Counted from the first letter of the stretch, positions 5,100 to 24,941 are shown. The stretch is DNA of 56,363 nt from Thermoplasmata archaeon (GCA_035297125.1 DATGZQ010000023.1:1-56363), one strand, 5' to 3'. The notes: generated by a model from the letters alone, not told the origin. A program made the numbers and translations.

Positions 5100-6158
5100 T
5101 CAGGCGCCTCCCTGCGTGAAGCTGATCTCGACCCCGGCGTAGGCGGTGGTCGCATAGTTGATGTTCAGGAACTCAAGGCTGATGTCGTACGACGTTCCCC
5201 CCGAATCCTGACAAACGGACGTCGAGGGCGGGAACGCGACCGAGCCGGTAAGGGAGTACGCCGAGGAGACGAGCCCGCTCGTCGTGACGAGGGACTGGAG
5301 GAAGGTGTACCATCCGCAGACGTTGTGGGTCCCGACCTCGAACGTGAAGTTGAACGGAACCGGCGTTCCCGTCGTGGTGGCGAAGCGGCCCGAGGAGGAG
5401 TACGGCTGGGAGTAATCGTAGTGGGTGAAGACGTCCTTCGTACCCTGGCTAGTGTAGACCGAGGCGTTGCCGAACAGCTGCAGGTAGCTCGACTGCACGG
5501 TCGTGTTCGGCCCCACCTTGGTGACGTTGAGCGGCGGGGGAACGATCATCAGCTGGTGTCCTCCCGTCTGCGTCAGGAACACCGCGTCGTCCTCGAAGTA
5601 GTAGTTGACCGAGGGGTAGTACCGGTCCGGCAGCGTCCCCTGGAGCACGGAGACGGAACTGGTCTCGTTGAACGGATGGTTCGTGGCCGGGTGGATCGCG
5701 GTCCCGACGCCCATGAGGACGTGCTGGAAGATGCAGTTGTTAGGCTGCTCGGGCGTGCCGTTGGCAGGGAAGAAACCGGCCGGGCAGTTCGCCGGTATGA
5801 ACGTGAGCGTCGCCTGGGTCGGCTGGGAGAGGAGCGGAACCGCCTGCGAGGCCAGCGTGAACGGCGTGGCGTAGGTGGCCGGGCCCCCGAGGGAGTACTG
5901 CTCGTCGACCGCCGACTTGAGAAGGGCGAACGACGATTCGATCCCGTCGGCGAACTGCCGCTCGTTGTCGGTCATCCAGAGCGGCACGTACTGGGTTAGG
6001 AAGATGCCGAACAGCGCGAAGAAGACGAGCAGCGCGAGGAGCGTGCCCACGACCGCCACGACCCCCCGCTTGCCGCGGTCGAGCCGCCGGGCCCGGCGAT
6101 AGCGGCGGCCCGTGAGAACGATACCGGCTTCCCCCATTCGCATCGCCCGGGGCGTCAA
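5100..6158 (-). CDS. Large pilin-like protein with class III (prepilin) signal peptide
   Basis: Basic leader ...RRLDRGKRG followed by hydrophobic VVAVVGTLLALLVFFALFGIFL; Thr/Ser/Asn-rich secreted-type body; first gene of the pilus operon. Start uncertain (TTG 6158, ATG 6143 or ATG 6137). Confidence 0.75.
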   Translation of the reverse strand: MTPRAMRMGEAGIVLTGRRYRRARRLDRGKRGVVAVVGTLLALLVFFALFGIFLTQYVPLWMTDNERQFADGIESSFALLKSAVDEQYSLGGPATYATPFTLASQAVPLLSQPTQATLTFIPANCPAGFFPANGTPEQPNNCIFQHVLMGVGTAIHPATNHPFNETSSVSVLQGTLPDRYYPSVNYYFEDDAVFLTQTGGHQLMIVPPPLNVTKVGPNTTVQSSYLQLFGNASVYTSQGTKDVFTHYDYSQPYSSSGRFATTTGTPVPFNFTFEVGTHNVCGWYTFLQSLVTTSGLVSSAYSLTGSVAFPPSTSVCQDSGGTSYDISLEFLNINYATTAYAGVEISFTQGGA

Positions 6159-7974: not shown

Positions 7975-8685
7975 CTAGTGCTCAATCCGGCTTCCGTCGA
8001 ACGGCCTTCCGAGGATCGCGGCCTCGAGGTTGGGTAGGTCGCGTCCGGCGACGACGTAGAGCGGGATCTCGGCGCGAGCGAGCGCGTCCGCACCCAGCCG
8101 GTCGAAAAGGAACATCTGGCCGGCCTCGCCCGTCGTGGCCGAGGCGACCATCCGCCGGAATTCGGTCCAGGTGAGCCGGTCGATGCGACGGGCGCTCCGG
8201 TTGGTCTTCGGGTCGGAATCGTAGACGCCCTTCACGTTCGTGGCGTTCACCAAGCAGGCGGCGCGGAGGCGCACGGCCACGAGCGCGGCGACCCCGTCGG
8301 TAGTGTGTCCCGGCTCGGTTCCGCCGAGCACGACCGGCGACGCATGACGCGCGGCATCCACGGCCTCGCGTACCGAGGCCGGAGGGTTGGAGGGGGTCGG
8401 TGGTCCGATGCGTCCGGCGAGCAGCCGGGCATGGAGCCGCGTCACGTCGATCCCAAGCTCGTCCAGCTCGAACTCGGTCAGTCCGAGCGAGCGGCCGAGG
8501 CGGATATAGTCCCGGGCCGTTCGGCCCCCACCAGTGGTCACGACTAGGGAGACCGACCGCCCGAGCCTACCCAGCATCTCCGCGAGCGCCTCGAGGTAGT
8601 CGGAGTCCCCGTCCCCCGTCAGGAGCACGGAGCCCCCGATCGACACGACAACGGGTCGACGGGACGTCGGAGGTGGAGTAGCCAT
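7975..8685 (-). CDS. pyrH: Uridylate kinase (archaeal type)
   Basis: VVSIGGSVL, TTGGGRTARDYI, GGTEPGHTTDGVAA, TNVKGVYDSDPK. Confidence 0.93.
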   Translation of the reverse strand: MATPPPTSRRPVVVSIGGSVLLTGDGDSDYLEALAEMLGRLGRSVSLVVTTGGGRTARDYIRLGRSLGLTEFELDELGIDVTRLHARLLAGRIGPPTPSNPPASVREAVDAARHASPVVLGGTEPGHTTDGVAALVAVRLRAACLVNATNVKGVYDSDPKTNRSARRIDRLTWTEFRRMVASATTGEAGQMFLFDRLGADALARAEIPLYVVAGRDLPNLEAAILGRPFDGSRIEH

Positions 8686-10229: not shown

Positions 10230-10406
10230 GCCCGGTTCCGGCGGCCCCGCCGCGAGACCGTCCCTCTGCTCCCACGGGTCGCCGATCCAGGCCGGCCTGA
10301 CGCCCCCTTCCCCCGTTCGCGGCGACCCCCGCCCGCGGGAAGGGTGAGGTTTATCCGCTCCGAGGGGTGGCATCGGCCGGCCGCGATCGACCGCGGCCGA
10401 GGGAAG

Positions 10407-11189
10407 ATGCAGGGGAAATACCTCCGAACTCGGATCGACGACCACGTCGGCTACATCGAGATCGGGAAGCCGAAGGCGAACACCTACGACCTCGAGATGA
10501 TGCGAGAGGTCGACCAGGCGGTCGAGGAGCTCCGGTTCGACGAGAACGCGCGAGTGATTGTTCTGACGAGCTCGCTGCCGGGATTCTTCAGCGCCGGCGC
10601 GGACATCGAGATGCTCAAGGCGAGCCACCCCGACTTCAAGGCGATGTTCTGCCTCCACTGCCAGGAGACCCTCGACAAGTTCGCCTCGACTCCCAAGGTC
10701 GTCATCGCGGCGATCAACGGTCACTGCGTCGGCGGAGGGCTCGAGATCGCGCTCGCGTGCGACCTTAGGATGATGGCGAAGGACTCGGGCAAGATCGGAC
10801 TCCCCGAGGTCACGCTGGGCGTGCTTCCCGGGACCGGAGGCACGCAGCGGCTTCCCCGGCTCGTCGGGACGTCCCGCGCGCTCGACATGATGATCACCGG
10901 AAAGCTGCTCACCCCGGACGAAGCGCTGGCCATCGGGCTGGTGAACTACGTCTACCCGAAGGAGTCGTTCGCGAAGGACGTTCAGGCCTACGCGGTCGCC
11001 CTGGCCCACGGACCGGCCCGCGCGGTCAGCCTGATCAAGCGCTCGGTCGTGGAAGGGATCGAGGTTCCGTTGACGGCCGGTCTGGCCCTCGAGCGCGAGC
11101 TCCAGAACCGCCTGTTCATCACGGAAGACGCGAAGGAAGGGCTGGCGGCGTTCGTCGAGAAGCGGAAGCCCAGCTTTAAGGGCCGCTGA
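10407..11189 (+). CDS. Enoyl-CoA hydratase/isomerase (crotonase), aromatic-CoA catabolism-associated type
   Basis: FSAGADI, AINGHCVGGGLEIALACD, GLPEVTLGVLPGTGGTQRL, EDAKEGLAAFVEKRKP. ATG 10407 follows GAGGGAAG, and there is a TTTATC box at 10350. Confidence 0.92.
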   Translation: MQGKYLRTRIDDHVGYIEIGKPKANTYDLEMMREVDQAVEELRFDENARVIVLTSSLPGFFSAGADIEMLKASHPDFKAMFCLHCQETLDKFASTPKVVIAAINGHCVGGGLEIALACDLRMMAKDSGKIGLPEVTLGVLPGTGGTQRLPRLVGTSRALDMMITGKLLTPDEALAIGLVNYVYPKESFAKDVQAYAVALAHGPARAVSLIKRSVVEGIEVPLTAGLALERELQNRLFITEDAKEGLAAFVEKRKPSFKGR

Positions 11190-11215
11190 CGCCTTTCGAA
11201 CCCAACGGTCGCACG

Positions 11216-12043
11216 ATGACGGTTCCCGGAGCGGTCCAGGGGTCTCCCGTCGCGAAGAGCCTGAAGGACGGCGGGACGATCGAGCCCGTCCGCGAGATCC
11301 TGTGGGGCACCTCGCAGGGCGTCCGGAAGTACGAGACCCCCGAGGAGTTCCCGCCGGACATGCGGAAGCTCGTCGTGAAGCTCATGGTCGTCCAGGCGGA
11401 CACCGAGTTCGCCTCCATCCAGCAGCACCGCCCGTGGCTGGACAAGGCGCCGACGCTGGAGGACCGCTGGATCGAGTCCCGCATCATCGCGGACGAATCC
11501 CGCCACGGCCTCCAGGCCTGCCGGATTCTCCGAGAGTTCGGCGAAGAGGGCCAGCGGCTGATCGACGACCTGCTCGTTCGGCGCGAAGGGGATCACAAGC
11601 TGGACGCGTTCAACATGCCGTTCGACCGATGGTCGGACGTCGGGGCGTTCACGTGCTTCGTCGACCGGGTCGGGGTCTACCAGCTGCGTGCCTTTCAGGA
11701 GTGCTCGTTCGGCCCGCTGGCGAGGGCGATGCCGCTGATGCTGAGCGAGGAACAGCTCCACCTGAACTTCGGCGCGAGCGTCCTTCGACGGATGGTCCAG
11801 GACGGACCGAAGTACTATGGATCGAAGAAGGAGGCGCAGGAGTCCGTCCTGAAATGGTACCCCCGCGCGCTCGACATGTTCGGCCACTCGAACTCGGAGA
11901 CGAGCCGCCGCGCGATCGAGTTCGGCCTGAAGCGCTGGACGAACGAGGAAGCCCGCCACCGATACATCGAGGAGACGCGCGCGATCGTGTCGTCGATCGG
12001 GCTCGAGCTCCCTCCTGAGGAGTTCGACCGGCGGGTCCTCTAG
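11216..12043 (+). CDS. Ferritin-like diiron aryl-CoA epoxidase, short BoxB/PaaA-family protein
   Basis: QADTEFAS, DESRH (ExxH), FNMPFDRW, FVDRVG, SFGPLAR, EEQLH (ExxH), KWYPRALDMFG: a complete carboxylate/His diiron ligand set. Confidence 0.8.
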   Translation: MTVPGAVQGSPVAKSLKDGGTIEPVREILWGTSQGVRKYETPEEFPPDMRKLVVKLMVVQADTEFASIQQHRPWLDKAPTLEDRWIESRIIADESRHGLQACRILREFGEEGQRLIDDLLVRREGDHKLDAFNMPFDRWSDVGAFTCFVDRVGVYQLRAFQECSFGPLARAMPLMLSEEQLHLNFGASVLRRMVQDGPKYYGSKKEAQESVLKWYPRALDMFGHSNSETSRRAIEFGLKRWTNEEARHRYIEETRAIVSSIGLELPPEEFDRRVL

Positions 12044-12076: not shown

Positions 12077-13048
12077 TCAGAACAGGTGGTCCTCGACCAG
12101 GCGGGCGGGGCCGCCGGGCGCGGACTCGATCACGGAGGAGACGCTCGCCAGACCCCCGAGCCTCTCCCTGACCGCGGTGACGTCCTGCTGTCGACAATTG
12201 ACGAACACGTTCTCGCCCGCATCGATCGAGAAGTAGGCCTGGGTCCCGGCCTCCCGGAGGGCGAGGACCGCACGGATCACGTCGAGGGTAGCGCCCGACC
12301 AGTAGACCAGGGGCGGGTCGGACGTGAGCATCGTGGCGTGCATGTTGAGCGTGTCCACCTCGGCGAGGCGCGCGACCTCGGTCCCGTTCCGGGCCCGGAG
12401 CGCAGCCCGCATCCGGTCGAGCGCGCCGACGAGGTACTCGAGGCGCGTCGCGAAGAACGGGGAGGTGGCGGTCGTGATCCGCATCCCCTCGGAACTTCCC
12501 ACCTTCTTAGGGCTCTCCCCCACGCCGACCGCTAGGGTCCGGAAGTCGAGGTCGTCCGGCCCGGCCAGGCGGACGGCCACGGAATGGAGATCGTCCCCCG
12601 CGAGCAGTTCCGCGAACCCTCCCGGGATGCTCCGGCTCGCCGACCCGGAGCCGAGCCTCGCGAGACGGGAGAGCTCGGGGAGAGGCATCGCGAGCCCTGC
12701 GGCGGCGACACCCGAGACCGTGAGAGCGGCGAAGCCGGACGCCGACGAGGCGAACCCGACGCCGGGCGGAAAGCCATTCTCGGAGACCACGCGGGCGCGC
12801 ATCTTCGAACCGGCAAGGGCACGGATCCGGTCGAGATGCTTGAACACCCGCGGGTCGTTGGAGGGCCGCTGGTTGAGGACCAAGGAATCGTGGGCGATCG
12901 CCTCCGAGAACTCGACCGTGGTCCGGGTGGTGAGGGCGGCGAGGCAGACGCTGATGCTCCCGTTCGAGGGTACGCGAAGGGCCTCGTCCGTCTTGCCCCA
13001 GTACTTGATCAGTCCCTGGTTGGCGCAGGCGATCGCGGTGGACTTCAG
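12077..13048 (-). CDS. mvaD: (Di)phosphomevalonate decarboxylase, GHMP family
   Basis: QGLIKYWGK, NGSIS, GFASSASGFAA, ARLGSGSASRS, SIDAGENV (catalytic Asp), C-terminal VEDHLF. Homology begins at LKSTAIA, so the start is probably CTG 13048 (see findings). Confidence 0.85.
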   Translation of the reverse strand: MKSTAIACANQGLIKYWGKTDEALRVPSNGSISVCLAALTTRTTVEFSEAIAHDSLVLNQRPSNDPRVFKHLDRIRALAGSKMRARVVSENGFPPGVGFASSASGFAALTVSGVAAAGLAMPLPELSRLARLGSGSASRSIPGGFAELLAGDDLHSVAVRLAGPDDLDFRTLAVGVGESPKKVGSSEGMRITTATSPFFATRLEYLVGALDRMRAALRARNGTEVARLAEVDTLNMHATMLTSDPPLVYWSGATLDVIRAVLALREAGTQAYFSIDAGENVFVNCRQQDVTAVRERLGGLASVSSVIESAPGGPARLVEDHLF

Positions 13049-13049
13049 C

Positions 13050-13574
13050 CTAGATCCCTCCGTTCGCCACGACGTCCACGAGTGGACGGACACGGTCGAC
13101 CATCGCGACCTCCTCCCGGTCCATCTTTTCCCAGCGGTCCTTCGCGACGACGTCCCAGCGGATAGGGTCTACGTCCCTGCGCCGGGCCATCGCCCGCTGC
13201 CGCCGGGTCGCCTCGTCCGTCCGAACCTCGACCACGAGGAGCCGGGCCCCGAGCTCCCGACGGAACCCCTCGACCTCCTCCTTGACCCGGAGACCGTCCA
13301 GCACGACGAGGTCCGACCCCGACCCGCGGATCTTCTCCAGCACCGGCGCGACCCGCCAGGTGGGGTTCTCGGCGACCAGCGAGGCGAACAGCGCCCAGGT
13401 CTCGTCCCGCGACACGGAGAGCCCGCGCTCCTTCGCGACCTCGCGGGTGAGGTCGCCGAGGTCGATGTGGGCGAACCCCTTCGTTCCCAGCAGCTTCGAG
13501 AGCTCGCTCTTTCCCGCGCACGTGTAGCCGGTGAGTCCGATCACGAGGCGGGAGCCTCCTTCGGAAGCGGTCAT
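13050..13574 (-). CDS. P-loop NMP-kinase-fold protein (archaeal dephospho-CoA-kinase-like family), substrate unknown
   Basis: IGLTGYTCAGKS, DLGDLTRE, VVLDGLRVKEE, EATRRQR...RRD. ATG 13574 is preferred over the track's 13730. Confidence 0.78.
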   Translation of the reverse strand: MTASEGGSRLVIGLTGYTCAGKSELSKLLGTKGFAHIDLGDLTREVAKERGLSVSRDETWALFASLVAENPTWRVAPVLEKIRGSGSDLVVLDGLRVKEEVEGFRRELGARLLVVEVRTDEATRRQRAMARRRDVDPIRWDVVAKDRWEKMDREEVAMVDRVRPLVDVVANGGI

Positions 13575-13719
13575 GCGGGTCAGCGTCTCTTCCTCTAGGG
13601 TCCTGAGGCAACCGAGGCGATAGCGTCTGCGAGGCGGAACGGTGGGCGGCTGCCCCCCCACGGCCCGCCCCGTCCGGGGACGGGACAAGCCGTTATGCCA
13701 CCGTCCTCTTCCTTGGGTC

Positions 13720-14217
13720 GTGACACGCAAGGCTTCGGCCGCCGAACCCCGCCCGACCCGCCCGCTGCCGGATCTGTACCACGCCGCCCGACGGGGCGGT
13801 TTTCACCAGACCGTCGGGTTCCGGGTCGTCGTTGCCCAGAGCGGACGCGGCTTCTGCACGGTCGCCGGTCGGGTGAAACGCCAGCACCTGAACATCAATG
13901 GGATTGTGCACGGGGGCGTCTACGCGACGATCCTCGATACCGCGATGGGCGCCGCGGTGCTCTCCTTGTTGACGGAGGAGGAGACGGCCGCGACCACATC
14001 CCTCTACGTGGAGTTCCTGAGCGCTGCCCGGGCCGGGGACACTCTCACCGCACGAGGGCACGTCCTCCGGCGGGGCCGGCACATCGCGTTCGCCGAGGGG
14101 GACCTGTTCGGCGCCGACGGGCACACGCTCAGCCAGGCGCGCGGGACGTGGTACATCTGGTCGGCGGCGGAGACCCCGCGGAGCGTCCGGGCGGCAACGC
14201 GCCGGCGTACGCGCTGA
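13720..14217 (+). CDS. PaaI-family (hotdog) acyl-CoA thioesterase
   Basis: HLNINGIVHGGVYATILDTAMG, TTSLYVEFL, VLRRGRHIAFAEG. Start approximate (GTG 13720). Confidence 0.88.
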   Translation: MTRKASAAEPRPTRPLPDLYHAARRGGFHQTVGFRVVVAQSGRGFCTVAGRVKRQHLNINGIVHGGVYATILDTAMGAAVLSLLTEEETAATTSLYVEFLSAARAGDTLTARGHVLRRGRHIAFAEGDLFGADGHTLSQARGTWYIWSAAETPRSVRAATRRRTR

Positions 14218-24068: not shown

Positions 24069-24941
24069 TCACCCGCCCGTTACGTCTCCGAGGAACTCGC
24101 GGATCGTGCCCAGGAACTCCTTCGGTTGTTCGAGGATGGGGAAGTGGCTCGAGCGGGCCAGAACGCGCAGGTGCGCCGGCTCGATCCGCTCGTTCATCTC
24201 GACCGACGGCTCGAAGAAGTAGTCGTACCGTCCCACGACGACCAAGGTCGGTGCCTCGATGCGGGAGTAGTACTTCCGGCCGTCCCATCGCGCGATCGTC
24301 CCGTCGACCACGAACCCGTCCCCCGAGCGGCTCATCATCGCCCGGTACACCGCCGGGTTGAGCTTCGTGGCTTTCCAGTCCGGATGAACCGACTTCAGGA
24401 ACCGGGACTGGAACGGCCGCTCGATCGCATCCGAGAGGGCGATGTATCCGGGGTCGGTGAACGCCCTCGCCCGCGTGAGCTCGCGGAGACGCGCACGCTG
24501 ACGCGGGGACGCGGCGGCGATCATCTGGCGGTGGGCGCCCCGCACCTCTTCGGCGCTCCCGGCGGTGGAGCATAGGAGGAGCGATGTGAGGTTCCGTTCG
24601 TACCGGTGGGCGTACTCGAGCGCCACGAAGCCCCCAGCCGAGTATCCGAGGAGGTGAAGCTCACGGATGTGCAGTGCCCGCCGGATCGCCTCCACGTCCT
24701 CGGCCATCTTCGGAATCGTGTACTCGGACGCTTTGCGGGGAGCCCAACTGTGCCCGACGCCCCGCGGGTTGAACAGGACCACCCGCAGGTTCGCGTTCGC
24801 GAGACGGAGCAGGCCGCGAAGGTAGTGGTACGTGAGGCCGGGGCCCCCGGGATGGACGAGCAACGTCGCAGGGCCGCCCCCTTGGGCGACGTACTCGAAC
24901 GACTTCCGGCCCGGAACGTGGACGCGACGGACCCTCGCCAT
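24069..24941 (-). CDS. Alpha/beta hydrolase, proline iminopeptidase (tricorn F1)-like
   Basis: HPGGPG, FNPRGVGHS, nucleophile GYSAGG, GRYD, SHFP triad; ATG 24941. Confidence 0.85.
   Translation of the reverse strand: MARVRRVHVPGRKSFEYVAQGGGPATLLVHPGGPGLTYHYLRGLLRLANANLRVVLFNPRGVGHSWAPRKASEYTIPKMAEDVEAIRRALHIRELHLLGYSAGGFVALEYAHRYERNLTSLLLCSTAGSAEEVRGAHRQMIAAASPRQRARLRELTRARAFTDPGYIALSDAIERPFQSRFLKSVHPDWKATKLNPAVYRAMMSRSGDGFVVDGTIARWDGRKYYSRIEAPTLVVVGRYDYFFEPSVEMNERIEPAHLRVLARSSHFPILEQPKEFLGTIREFLGDVTGG

Follow-up and report, generated by a model that had tools for sequence, protein, structure and literature searches.

The window analyzed in this study, a stretch of 56,363 nucleotides from a Thermoplasmata archaeon (GCA_035297125.1, DATGZQ010000023.1:1-56363), carries on its minus strand the gene of a small P-loop kinase, here named KIN, directly followed by the gene of an ATP-dependent decarboxylase of the mevalonate family, here named DEC. 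The window is contig C23 of the metagenome-assembled genome (MAG) of a soil archaeon, referred to as G000 in the following (1.63 Mb, 68.5% G+C, 87% complete, 4% contaminated). KIN very probably acts somewhere in the lower mevalonate pathway. From the gene context, the pattern of gene replacement and the decay of isopentenyl phosphate kinase (IPK) and of the native phosphomevalonate decarboxylase (PMD) we infer phosphomevalonate kinase (PMK) activity (EC 2.7.4.2) for this protein: KIN is probably a PMK which does not belong to the GHMP kinases, derives from UPF0200-like kinases and feeds a true diphosphomevalonate decarboxylase (DMD). Slightly more cautiously, we propose that KIN represents a third independent class of PMKs and forms, together with its dedicated DMD, a mobile cassette which turns a haloarchaea-type into a eukaryote-type pathway, and that stages of this conversion have been caught in the genomes.

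KIN was found upstream of a decarboxylase of the Lys type in five species-representative Thermoplasmata genomes (loci L016-L020) and on the metagenome contigs L042, L045/L046, L085 and L086. Wherever the DNA downstream of KIN is visible, it is directly followed, within a few nucleotides or with an overlap, by a decarboxylase with Lys and Met at the equivalents of positions 21 and 196 (Lys/Met decarboxylase; numbering of the S. epidermidis enzyme MDD). This was observed in at least five different neighbourhoods (Table 1), and within the KIN-linked set the identity to the window decarboxylase drops to 54%. Seven further KIN/DEC pairs appear to share one contig each. Thus, the linkage to which the initial annotation, made from the DNA alone, had drawn attention is conserved in every visible case, and the adjacency of KIN and DEC is not due to chance. 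In locus L019, which belongs to genome G465, the transposase found near the pair is of the IS630-like type (L019:5009-6067, DDE_3 with HTH domains), which would fit a horizontal acquisition of the cassette.

The two genes are closely joined. The statement of the initial annotation that the kinase gene ends 1 nt before the decarboxylase gene is correct if DEC begins at CTG 13048. It does not hold for GTG 13093, the sole canonical in-frame start codon of DEC and the alternative annotated start, which would overlap KIN by 44 nt. The CTG is the codon at which homologues have ATG, GTG or TTG (protein start MK(A/S)(S/T)A), and the motif GGAGGG sits 7 nt upstream of it. In L086 (near position 5526) the CTG is preceded at a distance of 18 nt by an in-frame stop codon, and the interval lacks a canonical start codon. 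Consequently, the decarboxylase of this locus would start only at the CTG or via re-initiation. The junction forms observed across the relatives (Table 1) thus point to a two-gene unit, and KIN and DEC are predicted to form an operon with tight translational coupling. A +1 frameshift fusion of both genes was also considered. It is unlikely, as the relatives possess separate open reading frames (ORFs) with ATG, GTG or TTG at the same codon. One protein of 341 amino acids, P0017, begins in the kinase frame and runs on into the decarboxylase. Loci L018 and L020, both from MFD assemblies, contain frameshifts in KIN and likewise in the genes for the M1 peptidase, PyrH and the crotonase. These, and likewise the run-on frame of P0017, are probably indel errors of the assembly and not biology.

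A total of 121 genomes of the family were scanned. A decarboxylase with 79-100% identity to DEC was detected only in G000, G356 and G460, and 99 other genomes possess a decarboxylase of about 33-50% identity. Among 401 genomes of the class, KIN was found at E<1e-80 only in G000 and G356, and the rest showed the weak UPF0200-type paralogue only. G460 lies outside this sample of 401 genomes, and its locus (L016/L021) contains KIN too. All 18 loci fetched from the same genus or family show the gene order of the window, namely M1 peptidase, thioesterase, decarboxylase, BoxB-like oxygenase, crotonase, rpiA and pyrH. In these 18 genomes the decarboxylase of the slot is a single gene with 36-43% identity to DEC, and the flanking genes are 55-91% identical to those of the window. 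The thioesterase gene (57-78% identical; Pfam 4HBT in L086) and the BoxB-like oxygenase gene (75-86% identical) have kept their positions. No kinase gene was found between the majority-type decarboxylase and the thioesterase gene in any of the 18 loci. In the majority-type enzymes, the residue after KYWG is V, L, M, I or Q and never Lys. A maximum-likelihood tree of 52 sequences placed majority-type and KIN-linked decarboxylases far apart. Forcing both types into one clade cost 55 log-likelihood units and was rejected by the approximately unbiased (AU) test (p=0.00012). Hence, the two decarboxylases are not orthologues. The shared slot, the differing decarboxylase and the distant placement in the tree demonstrate a same-site exchange in which one PMD-type gene was replaced by two, a kinase and a DMD-type decarboxylase. 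The crotonase and BoxB-like genes (window 10344-12043) show 75-91% identity across the family and form a fixed right border of the decarboxylase slot.

The motifs KYWGK, ASSASG, SSEGM and IDAG, which had been read from DEC in the initial annotation, are all present, the last one as SIDAGE. DEC is composed of the domains MVD-like_N (PF22700, 168 bits) and MDD_C (PF18376, 64 bits). It scores 232.8 bits on TIGR01240, above the cut-off of 171, and stays below the cut-offs of NF040704 (PMD, MvaD; 214.6 bits, cut-off 475), a model built for haloarchaeal enzymes, and of NF040847 (bisphosphomevalonate decarboxylase; 16 bits, cut-off 560). These NCBIfam models were rejected as a means to discriminate DMD from PMD, since the Lys-less decarboxylase typical of the genus scores like DEC on TIGR01240 (238-241 bits).

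The residues of the active site are more informative. The best matches of DEC in the PDB are the variant (6N0Z, 234.7 bits) and the wild type (6N0X, 229.4 bits) of the PMD from Anaerolinea thermophila. The wild type reads YWGN...GH and the variant YWGK...GM; DEC likewise reads YWGK and GM. Mutagenesis has turned the specificity of the Anaerolinea PMD to that of a DMD (PMC9254496), and 6N0Z is presumably this engineered enzyme. A conserved Lys has been described for DMD and a conserved His for PMD (PMC11052028). In Table 4 of Dellas et al. 2013, Tyr18, Lys21, Ser139, Ser141 and Ser192 count as MDD-like; at position 21, the MPD-like residues are Leu, Met and Tyr. The same table lists Arg at position 27 as MPD-like; in DMDs this position is Ile or Asn in eukaryotes and Sulfolobales and variable in bacteria. 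In DEC the MDD-like set is complete (Y16, K19, S134, S136, S185 and M189 in its own numbering, equivalent to Tyr18, Lys21, Ser139, Ser141, Ser192 and Met196). Positions 21 and 196 co-vary: the query and its 120 best homologues include 52 sequences with the combination K/M and 41 with N/H. The rule given in the initial annotation, that Lys and Met mark a DMD and that a PMD lacks the Lys and has His, agrees with 6N0X and 6N0Z and with both publications on these residues; so does its view that DEC resembles DMDs more than PMDs. The roles of the catalytic residues were taken from PMC9254496. DEC has kept the ASSASG loop and the equivalents of Lys188 and Asp283, and its kinase and decarboxylase half-reactions therefore both appear intact. 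DEC is thus predicted to be a true DMD with mevalonate 5-diphosphate as its putative substrate.

Apart from P0054, Lys/Met decarboxylases outside the KIN clade were found next to other kinases (Table 1). In L043 (5080-5958 and 6986-7867) and L083 (2920-4715) such decarboxylases are flanked by two kinases scoring as mevalonate kinase (MVK), and a PMK of the TIGR01220 type is missing there. One of the paired copies may be a PMK derived from MVK. In two unrelated lineages the gene of an HD-domain protein lies directly downstream of a Lys/Met decarboxylase (L082:4008-4598, with P0054; L084:7009-7773, with P0038). The HD-domain gene of L082 shows a stop/start overlap and precedes genes for a prenyltransferase, IDI2 and a polyprenyl synthase.

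The pathway genes of G000 were inventoried as well. Besides the MVK candidate and the IPK (Table 1), this genome contains one gene of the MDD family, which is DEC itself, and no paralogue for a mevalonate 3-kinase. The archaeal dehydratase route was considered as well and rejected: an AcnX dehydratase was not found in G000 (only a weak match of 18.6 bits), and UbiD was not searched. A GHMP-type PMK was not found in any of the six KIN-carrying genomes (G000 and G462-G466). Their GHMP matches comprise MVK, shikimate kinase, pantoate kinase, an HddA-like sugar kinase and the decarboxylase itself; the GHMP-type MVK is kept in G000, G462, G463, G464 and G465. An additional HddA-like group, present in KIN-carrying genomes other than G000 and also in the KIN-less control G010, was considered as a hidden PMK and rejected, as it classifies as a sugar-phosphate kinase (HddA 277 bits, Arch_PMK 27 bits). 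As matches to PF04275, the family of the animal PMK, were absent too, none of the six genomes contains a detectable canonical PMK elsewhere, the case that the initial annotation had named as speaking against its proposal.

The IPK cut-off was exceeded in all five controls lacking KIN and in each of the 30 relatives of G465 searched (lowest score among the latter 161.6 bits). Among the six KIN-carrying genomes it is intact in G000, G464 and G466, has lost catalytic residues in G462 and G463 and is undetected in G465, where no match exceeded 30 bits. The IPK genes of G462 (L091, G462:C125) and G463 (L092, G463:C54) are dying: the frame is open and 125-127 bits are reached, with three catalytic substitutions. 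The Lys of KxGGS is changed to Thr or Glu, the His of GSFGH to Arg or Gln and the Lys of DVTGG..K to Thr or Arg. GSFGH is common to all solved IPKs, and His60, the equivalent of its His, is key in holding the terminal phosphate (PMC9654404). Apparently, these two proteins are pseudo-enzymes in the making.

G465 is the only one among 41 related genomes to contain KIN, and its KIN-DEC cassette lies on a contig other than that of the native-slot decarboxylase (L071:957-1925, G465:C153). In the latter KYWG is changed to KQWG, ASSASG to GGAASG and the Lys188 equivalent to Arg, and its terminal branch in the tree is twice as long as that of its sister. Judged by these changes, G465 appears to be an intermediate in which the native decarboxylase degenerates beside the acquired cassette. 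If IPK and the native PMD have been made dispensable, the module itself must take mevalonate 5-phosphate to isopentenyl diphosphate. For a role of KIN in the pathway, this dispensability is the most compelling argument.

The description of KIN as a P-loop kinase in the initial annotation is borne out by its Walker A motif and by matches to AAA_18 (43 bits) and AAA_17 (36 bits). In Pfam only such generic P-loop kinase families were matched. The scores for CoaE remained below the cut-offs (PF01121, 16.9 bits, cut-off 27; TIGR00152, 12.9 bits, cut-off 65.6) and concerned only the P-loop residues 10-49. KIN has no GHMP domain and does not fall into the GHMP-type PMK families TIGR01220, TIGR01219 and NF040957. 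Its nearest solved relative is the UPF0200 protein SSO1041 (E 8e-10 with the single sequence, 7e-15 with a profile). KIN does not reach the threshold of the UPF0200 model PRK08356 (NF006226; 25.9 bits, cut-off 189) and shares about 26-28% identity with UPF0200-like proteins. Among 1.84 billion cluster representatives, KIN scored about 220 bits inside its subfamily, for which only 2 representatives passed E<=1e-30; outside it no full-length protein exceeded 85 bits. G000 also contains an ordinary UPF0200 kinase paralogue (C18, about 24138-24683) with 28% identity to KIN, and KIN would therefore be an extra, specialised copy. From these sequence similarities KIN is assigned as a diverged paralogue derived from archaeal kinases of the UPF0200/SSO1041 type. 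An ordinary UPF0200-type match (E<=1e-5) was present in 297 of the 401 Thermoplasmata genomes scanned. A distant relative of KIN, P0138 (379 aa), consists of two UPF0200-like kinase domains duplicated in tandem, the second of which scored 34.1 bits on PF04275 (cut-off 33.8), with no individually significant stretch.

In an alignment of 16 KIN sequences with 76 UPF0200-like kinases, G16, G21 and K22 of the Walker A motif were common to both groups, as were D41, R44, R56, D93, G94, R96 and the lid residues R124, R127, R131, R133 and D136. KIN thus appears to be catalytically competent. Invariant in KIN only were Y17, T18, C19, T59, W60, F63, W73, R74, R118, W148, R161 and R163. These residues concentrate in helices 56-85 (model helices 56-69 and 75-85), which presumably correspond to the acceptor-binding lobe of nucleoside monophosphate (NMP) kinases. 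The KIN-specific segment (Table 1) is presumed to form an acceptor site that is remodelled relative to UPF0200. The AlphaFold2 model of KIN had a pLDDT of 86 and a pTM of 0.81; its lowest-confidence part is the lid segment, which is probably mobile. A Foldseek comparison yielded TM-scores of 0.75 for SSO1041, 0.67 for human PMK (3CH4) and 0.62-0.64 for silkworm PMK (7XND). After SSO1041 the animal PMKs rank highest, and most adenylate kinases are lower (0.5-0.63). The NMP-kinase fold, the P-loop and the Arg-rich lid are all present in KIN; as this fold is common to many kinases, it is weak evidence when taken alone.

According to the proposed mechanism, the MVK encoded elsewhere in the genome would supply the module with mevalonate 5-phosphate. 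KIN would then move the gamma-phosphate of ATP onto the 5-phosphate of phosphomevalonate to yield mevalonate 5-diphosphate, and DEC would phosphorylate the 3-hydroxyl group and eliminate phosphate and CO2 to form isopentenyl diphosphate. The cassette would spread horizontally, and in the genus of the window it would have overwritten the resident PMD. In this way a haloarchaea-type route would become a eukaryote-type route in which IPK is dispensable. The genomes may represent three stages of this process: in G465, the native decarboxylase degenerates beside the cassette and IPK is undetected; in G000, G464 and G466, it has been replaced in place and IPK is intact; in G462 and G463, it has been replaced and IPK is catalytically dead. 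The proposal of the initial annotation that the kinase makes the substrate of the decarboxylase is supported by the conserved linkage, the lack of a detectable PMK and the DMD-type residues, with the exact reaction put forward as the probable one from sequence data. Slot replacement, IPK decay and the degenerating decarboxylase of G465 further support its suggestion of an unusual mevalonate pathway variant in this lineage.

The main rival of this interpretation holds that KIN is an analogue of IPK and DEC a PMD, so that both would form a self-contained haloarchaea-type module leading from mevalonate 5-phosphate via isopentenyl phosphate to isopentenyl diphosphate. It also explains the replacement of the native decarboxylase and the decay or loss of IPK in KIN-carrying genomes, and it can call upon the solved PMD as nearest relative of DEC and on the Arg at position 27. 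We nevertheless consider it unlikely. DEC possesses the DMD-marking Lys21/Met196 pair, as does the variant 6N0Z, and other Lys/Met decarboxylases accompany PMK-type kinases. Moreover, an isopentenyl phosphate kinase would suit any PMD and would need neither to travel and be coupled with a particular decarboxylase nor to displace the native PMD; strict co-transfer and the loss of the native enzyme are unexpected on this account. The same is true for the absence of KIN upstream of P0031, the one member of the DEC clade with Asn21. For these reasons the combination of PMK and DMD is favoured. The residue Arg27 also occurs in Lys/Met decarboxylases located beside GHMP kinases (the P0056 clade, with two GHMP kinases).

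That KIN is instead a nucleotide, dephospho-CoA or other housekeeping kinase outside the pathway, with DEC being a PMD which works with the IPK of the genome, seems improbable to us. In its favour, similarity-based annotations call proteins of the KIN family adenylate-kinase-like or dephospho-CoA-kinase-like, SSO1041 has been crystallised together with AMP, the IPK of G000 is intact, and neighbours in an operon are sometimes functionally unrelated. However, G000 already has an ordinary UPF0200 paralogue, the presumed acceptor lobe of KIN is remodelled compared to UPF0200, and KIN occurs only beside Lys-type decarboxylases, coupled by start and stop codons across differing neighbourhoods. With a PMD alone, G462, G463 and G465 would have an interrupted pathway, since their IPK function is lost. 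Finally, KIN might act at another point of the pathway, as a second MVK, as a kinase for another phosphomevalonate isomer or as a regulating or channelling partner of DEC. The linkage indicates a functional tie and not a reaction, and the Thermoplasma-type route indeed has non-GHMP kinases acting on odd mevalonate phosphates. This option is very unlikely all the same: five of the KIN-carrying genomes keep a GHMP-type MVK, G000 has a single MDD-family gene and no mevalonate 3-kinase paralogue, and DEC keeps the ATP loop, Lys188 and Asp283. The latter indicate that DEC itself carries out the 3-phosphorylation and does not belong to the bisphosphomevalonate decarboxylases, for which the score of 16 bits stands against a cut-off of 560.

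Several observations weigh against KIN as PMK and DEC as DMD. IPK appears to be intact in the window genome, G464 and G466, so a route of PMD and IPK would still be complete there. The nearest solved relative of DEC is a PMD, Arg at the position-27 equivalent is its only MPD-like state, and TIGR01240 and NF040704 fail to separate DMD from PMD activity. Neither of the known PMK families is matched by the KIN sequence. For Lys/Met decarboxylases not belonging to the KIN clade, only four contexts were covered, one of which (P0054) shows no kinase on the visible part of its contig. The clade used for the AU test was chosen after inspection of the tree. The genomes are MAGs throughout. With a completeness of 87% for G000, absences may be gaps; G465 may be a mixed bin.

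Compared to known systems, KIN resembles the animal PMK, PMVK (PF04275; 3CH4, 7XND), in being a small single-domain P-loop kinase of the NMP-kinase fold, and the proposed reaction is the same. By sequence, however, the possibility that KIN is an animal-type PMK was rejected: a search of 14 KIN sequences against PF04275 yielded no match at E<=10, nor did the KIN locus match in six-frame scans covering eight genomes. With its origin from archaeal UPF0200-like kinases, a shared function would be convergent. Closest in sequence and fold are UPF0200/SSO1041 proteins (PDB 3H0K, 3LW7; PRK08356), with the Gly and Lys of the P-loop, DG-x-R and the lid Arg residues in common, but KIN is a sharply separate subfamily with its own invariant residues and coexists with an ordinary UPF0200 gene in G000. 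A literature search for UPF0200/SSO1041 retrieved no functional study, and in the literature searched no UPF0200-like kinase is described in the mevalonate pathway, in contrast to GHMP-type PMKs, animal-type PMKs and Ta0762.

With the classical eukaryote-type route (MVK, the GHMP-type PMK ERG8 of TIGR01220/NF040957, and DMD) the module shares the proposed chemistry and order of steps; DEC has the DMD residue set and a GHMP-type MVK is present. It differs in that a non-GHMP enzyme would perform the PMK step, and in being a probably mobile two-gene cassette in the Thermoplasmata, a class described with haloarchaea-type or Thermoplasma-type routes. Among archaea, the classical lower pathway is known in Sulfolobales. 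The haloarchaea-type route with PMD and IPK (H. volcanii, Chloroflexi; 6N0X) fits the rest of the window genus, which has a Lys-less decarboxylase and IPK. The window DEC, in contrast, has Lys21/Met196 where the PMD of that route has Asn or a hydrophobic residue and His, and IPK is decaying or missing in three of the six KIN-carrying genomes. The mevalonate-3-phosphate 5-kinase of the Thermoplasma-type route, Ta0762, is also a non-GHMP kinase recruited to the mevalonate pathway in the same archaeal class. It is related to 2-phosphoglycerate kinase (PMC11052028) and thus belongs to a family different from that of KIN. G000 lacks both of its partners (mevalonate 3-kinase and bisphosphomevalonate decarboxylase), and an identity of KIN with this enzyme was rejected.

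Table 1. Features of the KIN-DEC module, its surroundings and related loci. Positions refer to the window unless a locus, contig or protein is given.
Feature	Position or locus	Strand	Description
KIN	13053-13574	minus	174-aa P-loop kinase ORF, stop codon TAG at 13050-13052; candidate phosphomevalonate kinase
DEC	12080-13048	minus	323-aa ATP-dependent mevalonate-family decarboxylase, stop codon at 12077-12079
KIN-DEC junction	13046-13065	minus	GGAGGG (Shine-Dalgarno-like), TAG, one G, CTG
Walker A, KIN residues 13-23	13506-13538	minus	GLTGYTCAGKS
KIN-specific invariant segment	13350-13400	minus	T59, W60, F63, P71, W73, R74, V75
Arg-rich lid segment, KIN residues 124-137	13164-13205	minus	RRQRAMARRRDVDP
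DEC Lys19	12992-12994	minus	In KYWGK; equals Lys21 of S. epidermidis MDD
DEC ASSASG	starts 12749-12751	minus	ATP loop
DEC Lys188 equivalent	12506-12508	minus	In SPKKVG
DEC SSEGM	12482-12496	minus	Ser192 and Met196 equivalents; Met replaces His of Chloroflexi-type PMDs
DEC catalytic Asp	12221-12223	minus	Asp283 equivalent, in SIDAGE
4HBT-type thioesterase gene	13642-14217	plus	Divergent; left border of conserved slot, outside the module
BoxB/PaaA-like diiron oxygenase gene	11216-12043	plus	Convergent; right border of slot, outside the module
Mevalonate kinase candidate	G000, C99		TIGR00549, 152 bits; conserved in relatives
Isopentenyl phosphate kinase	G000, C39		NF040647, 167 bits (cut-off 120); catalytic residues intact
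Junction TAG-G-CTG	window, L018, L086		
Junction CTGA	L016, L020 (near 8508-8528)		Stop/start overlap
Junction GTGA	L017		Stop/start overlap
Junction TAG, then directly TTG	L019		
Junction with ATG	L085		ATG start 2 nt past the kinase stop
Junction with ATG	L045		29-nt overlap of the ATG start with the kinase end
Window-type neighbourhood	L016-L018, L020, L086		
L019 neighbourhood	L019 (G465)		IS630-like transposase about 2 kb upstream of KIN-DEC
L042 neighbourhood	L042		NUDIX and HAD neighbours
Further KIN-DEC neighbourhoods	L045/L046; L085		
Decarboxylase, 21/196 = K/M	P0033		Two MVK-like GHMP kinases beside; no KIN
Decarboxylase, 21/196 = C/M	P0032		One MVK-like kinase beside; no KIN
Decarboxylase, 21/196 = N/M	P0031		No kinase upstream; no KIN
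Decarboxylase, 21/196 = K/M	P0038 clade		PMK (TIGR01220, 233 bits, cut-off 166) and MVK beside; no KIN
Decarboxylase, 21/196 = K/M	P0056		Two GHMP kinases (MVK-like) beside; no KIN
Decarboxylase, 21/196 = K/M	P0054		No kinase on visible part of contig; no KIN

The lower mevalonate pathway is a textbook example of pathway plasticity, and four archaeal variants have been described since 2013. To our knowledge, only two unrelated PMK families exist. KIN, if its proposed function is correct, would join the GHMP/ERG8 type and the animal-type PMVK as the third, and this would be the first function for one branch of the UPF0200-type kinases conserved in archaea. The chemistry would be that of the classical route; new are the proposed PMK enzyme family and the proposed mobile cassette that rewires the pathway. 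With only 174 amino acids KIN would be a very small PMK, potentially useful in pathway engineering. For the Lys21/Met196 specificity switch, until now demonstrated by engineering alone, the module would provide a test case from nature. Thermoplasmata carry extra MPD homologues of unknown function (PMC6107057), some of which would be explained by KIN-DEC. Current evolutionary schemes derive the eukaryote-type route from a duplication of mevalonate kinase (PMC9254496). If our proposal is true, this route can arise through transfer of a cassette instead.

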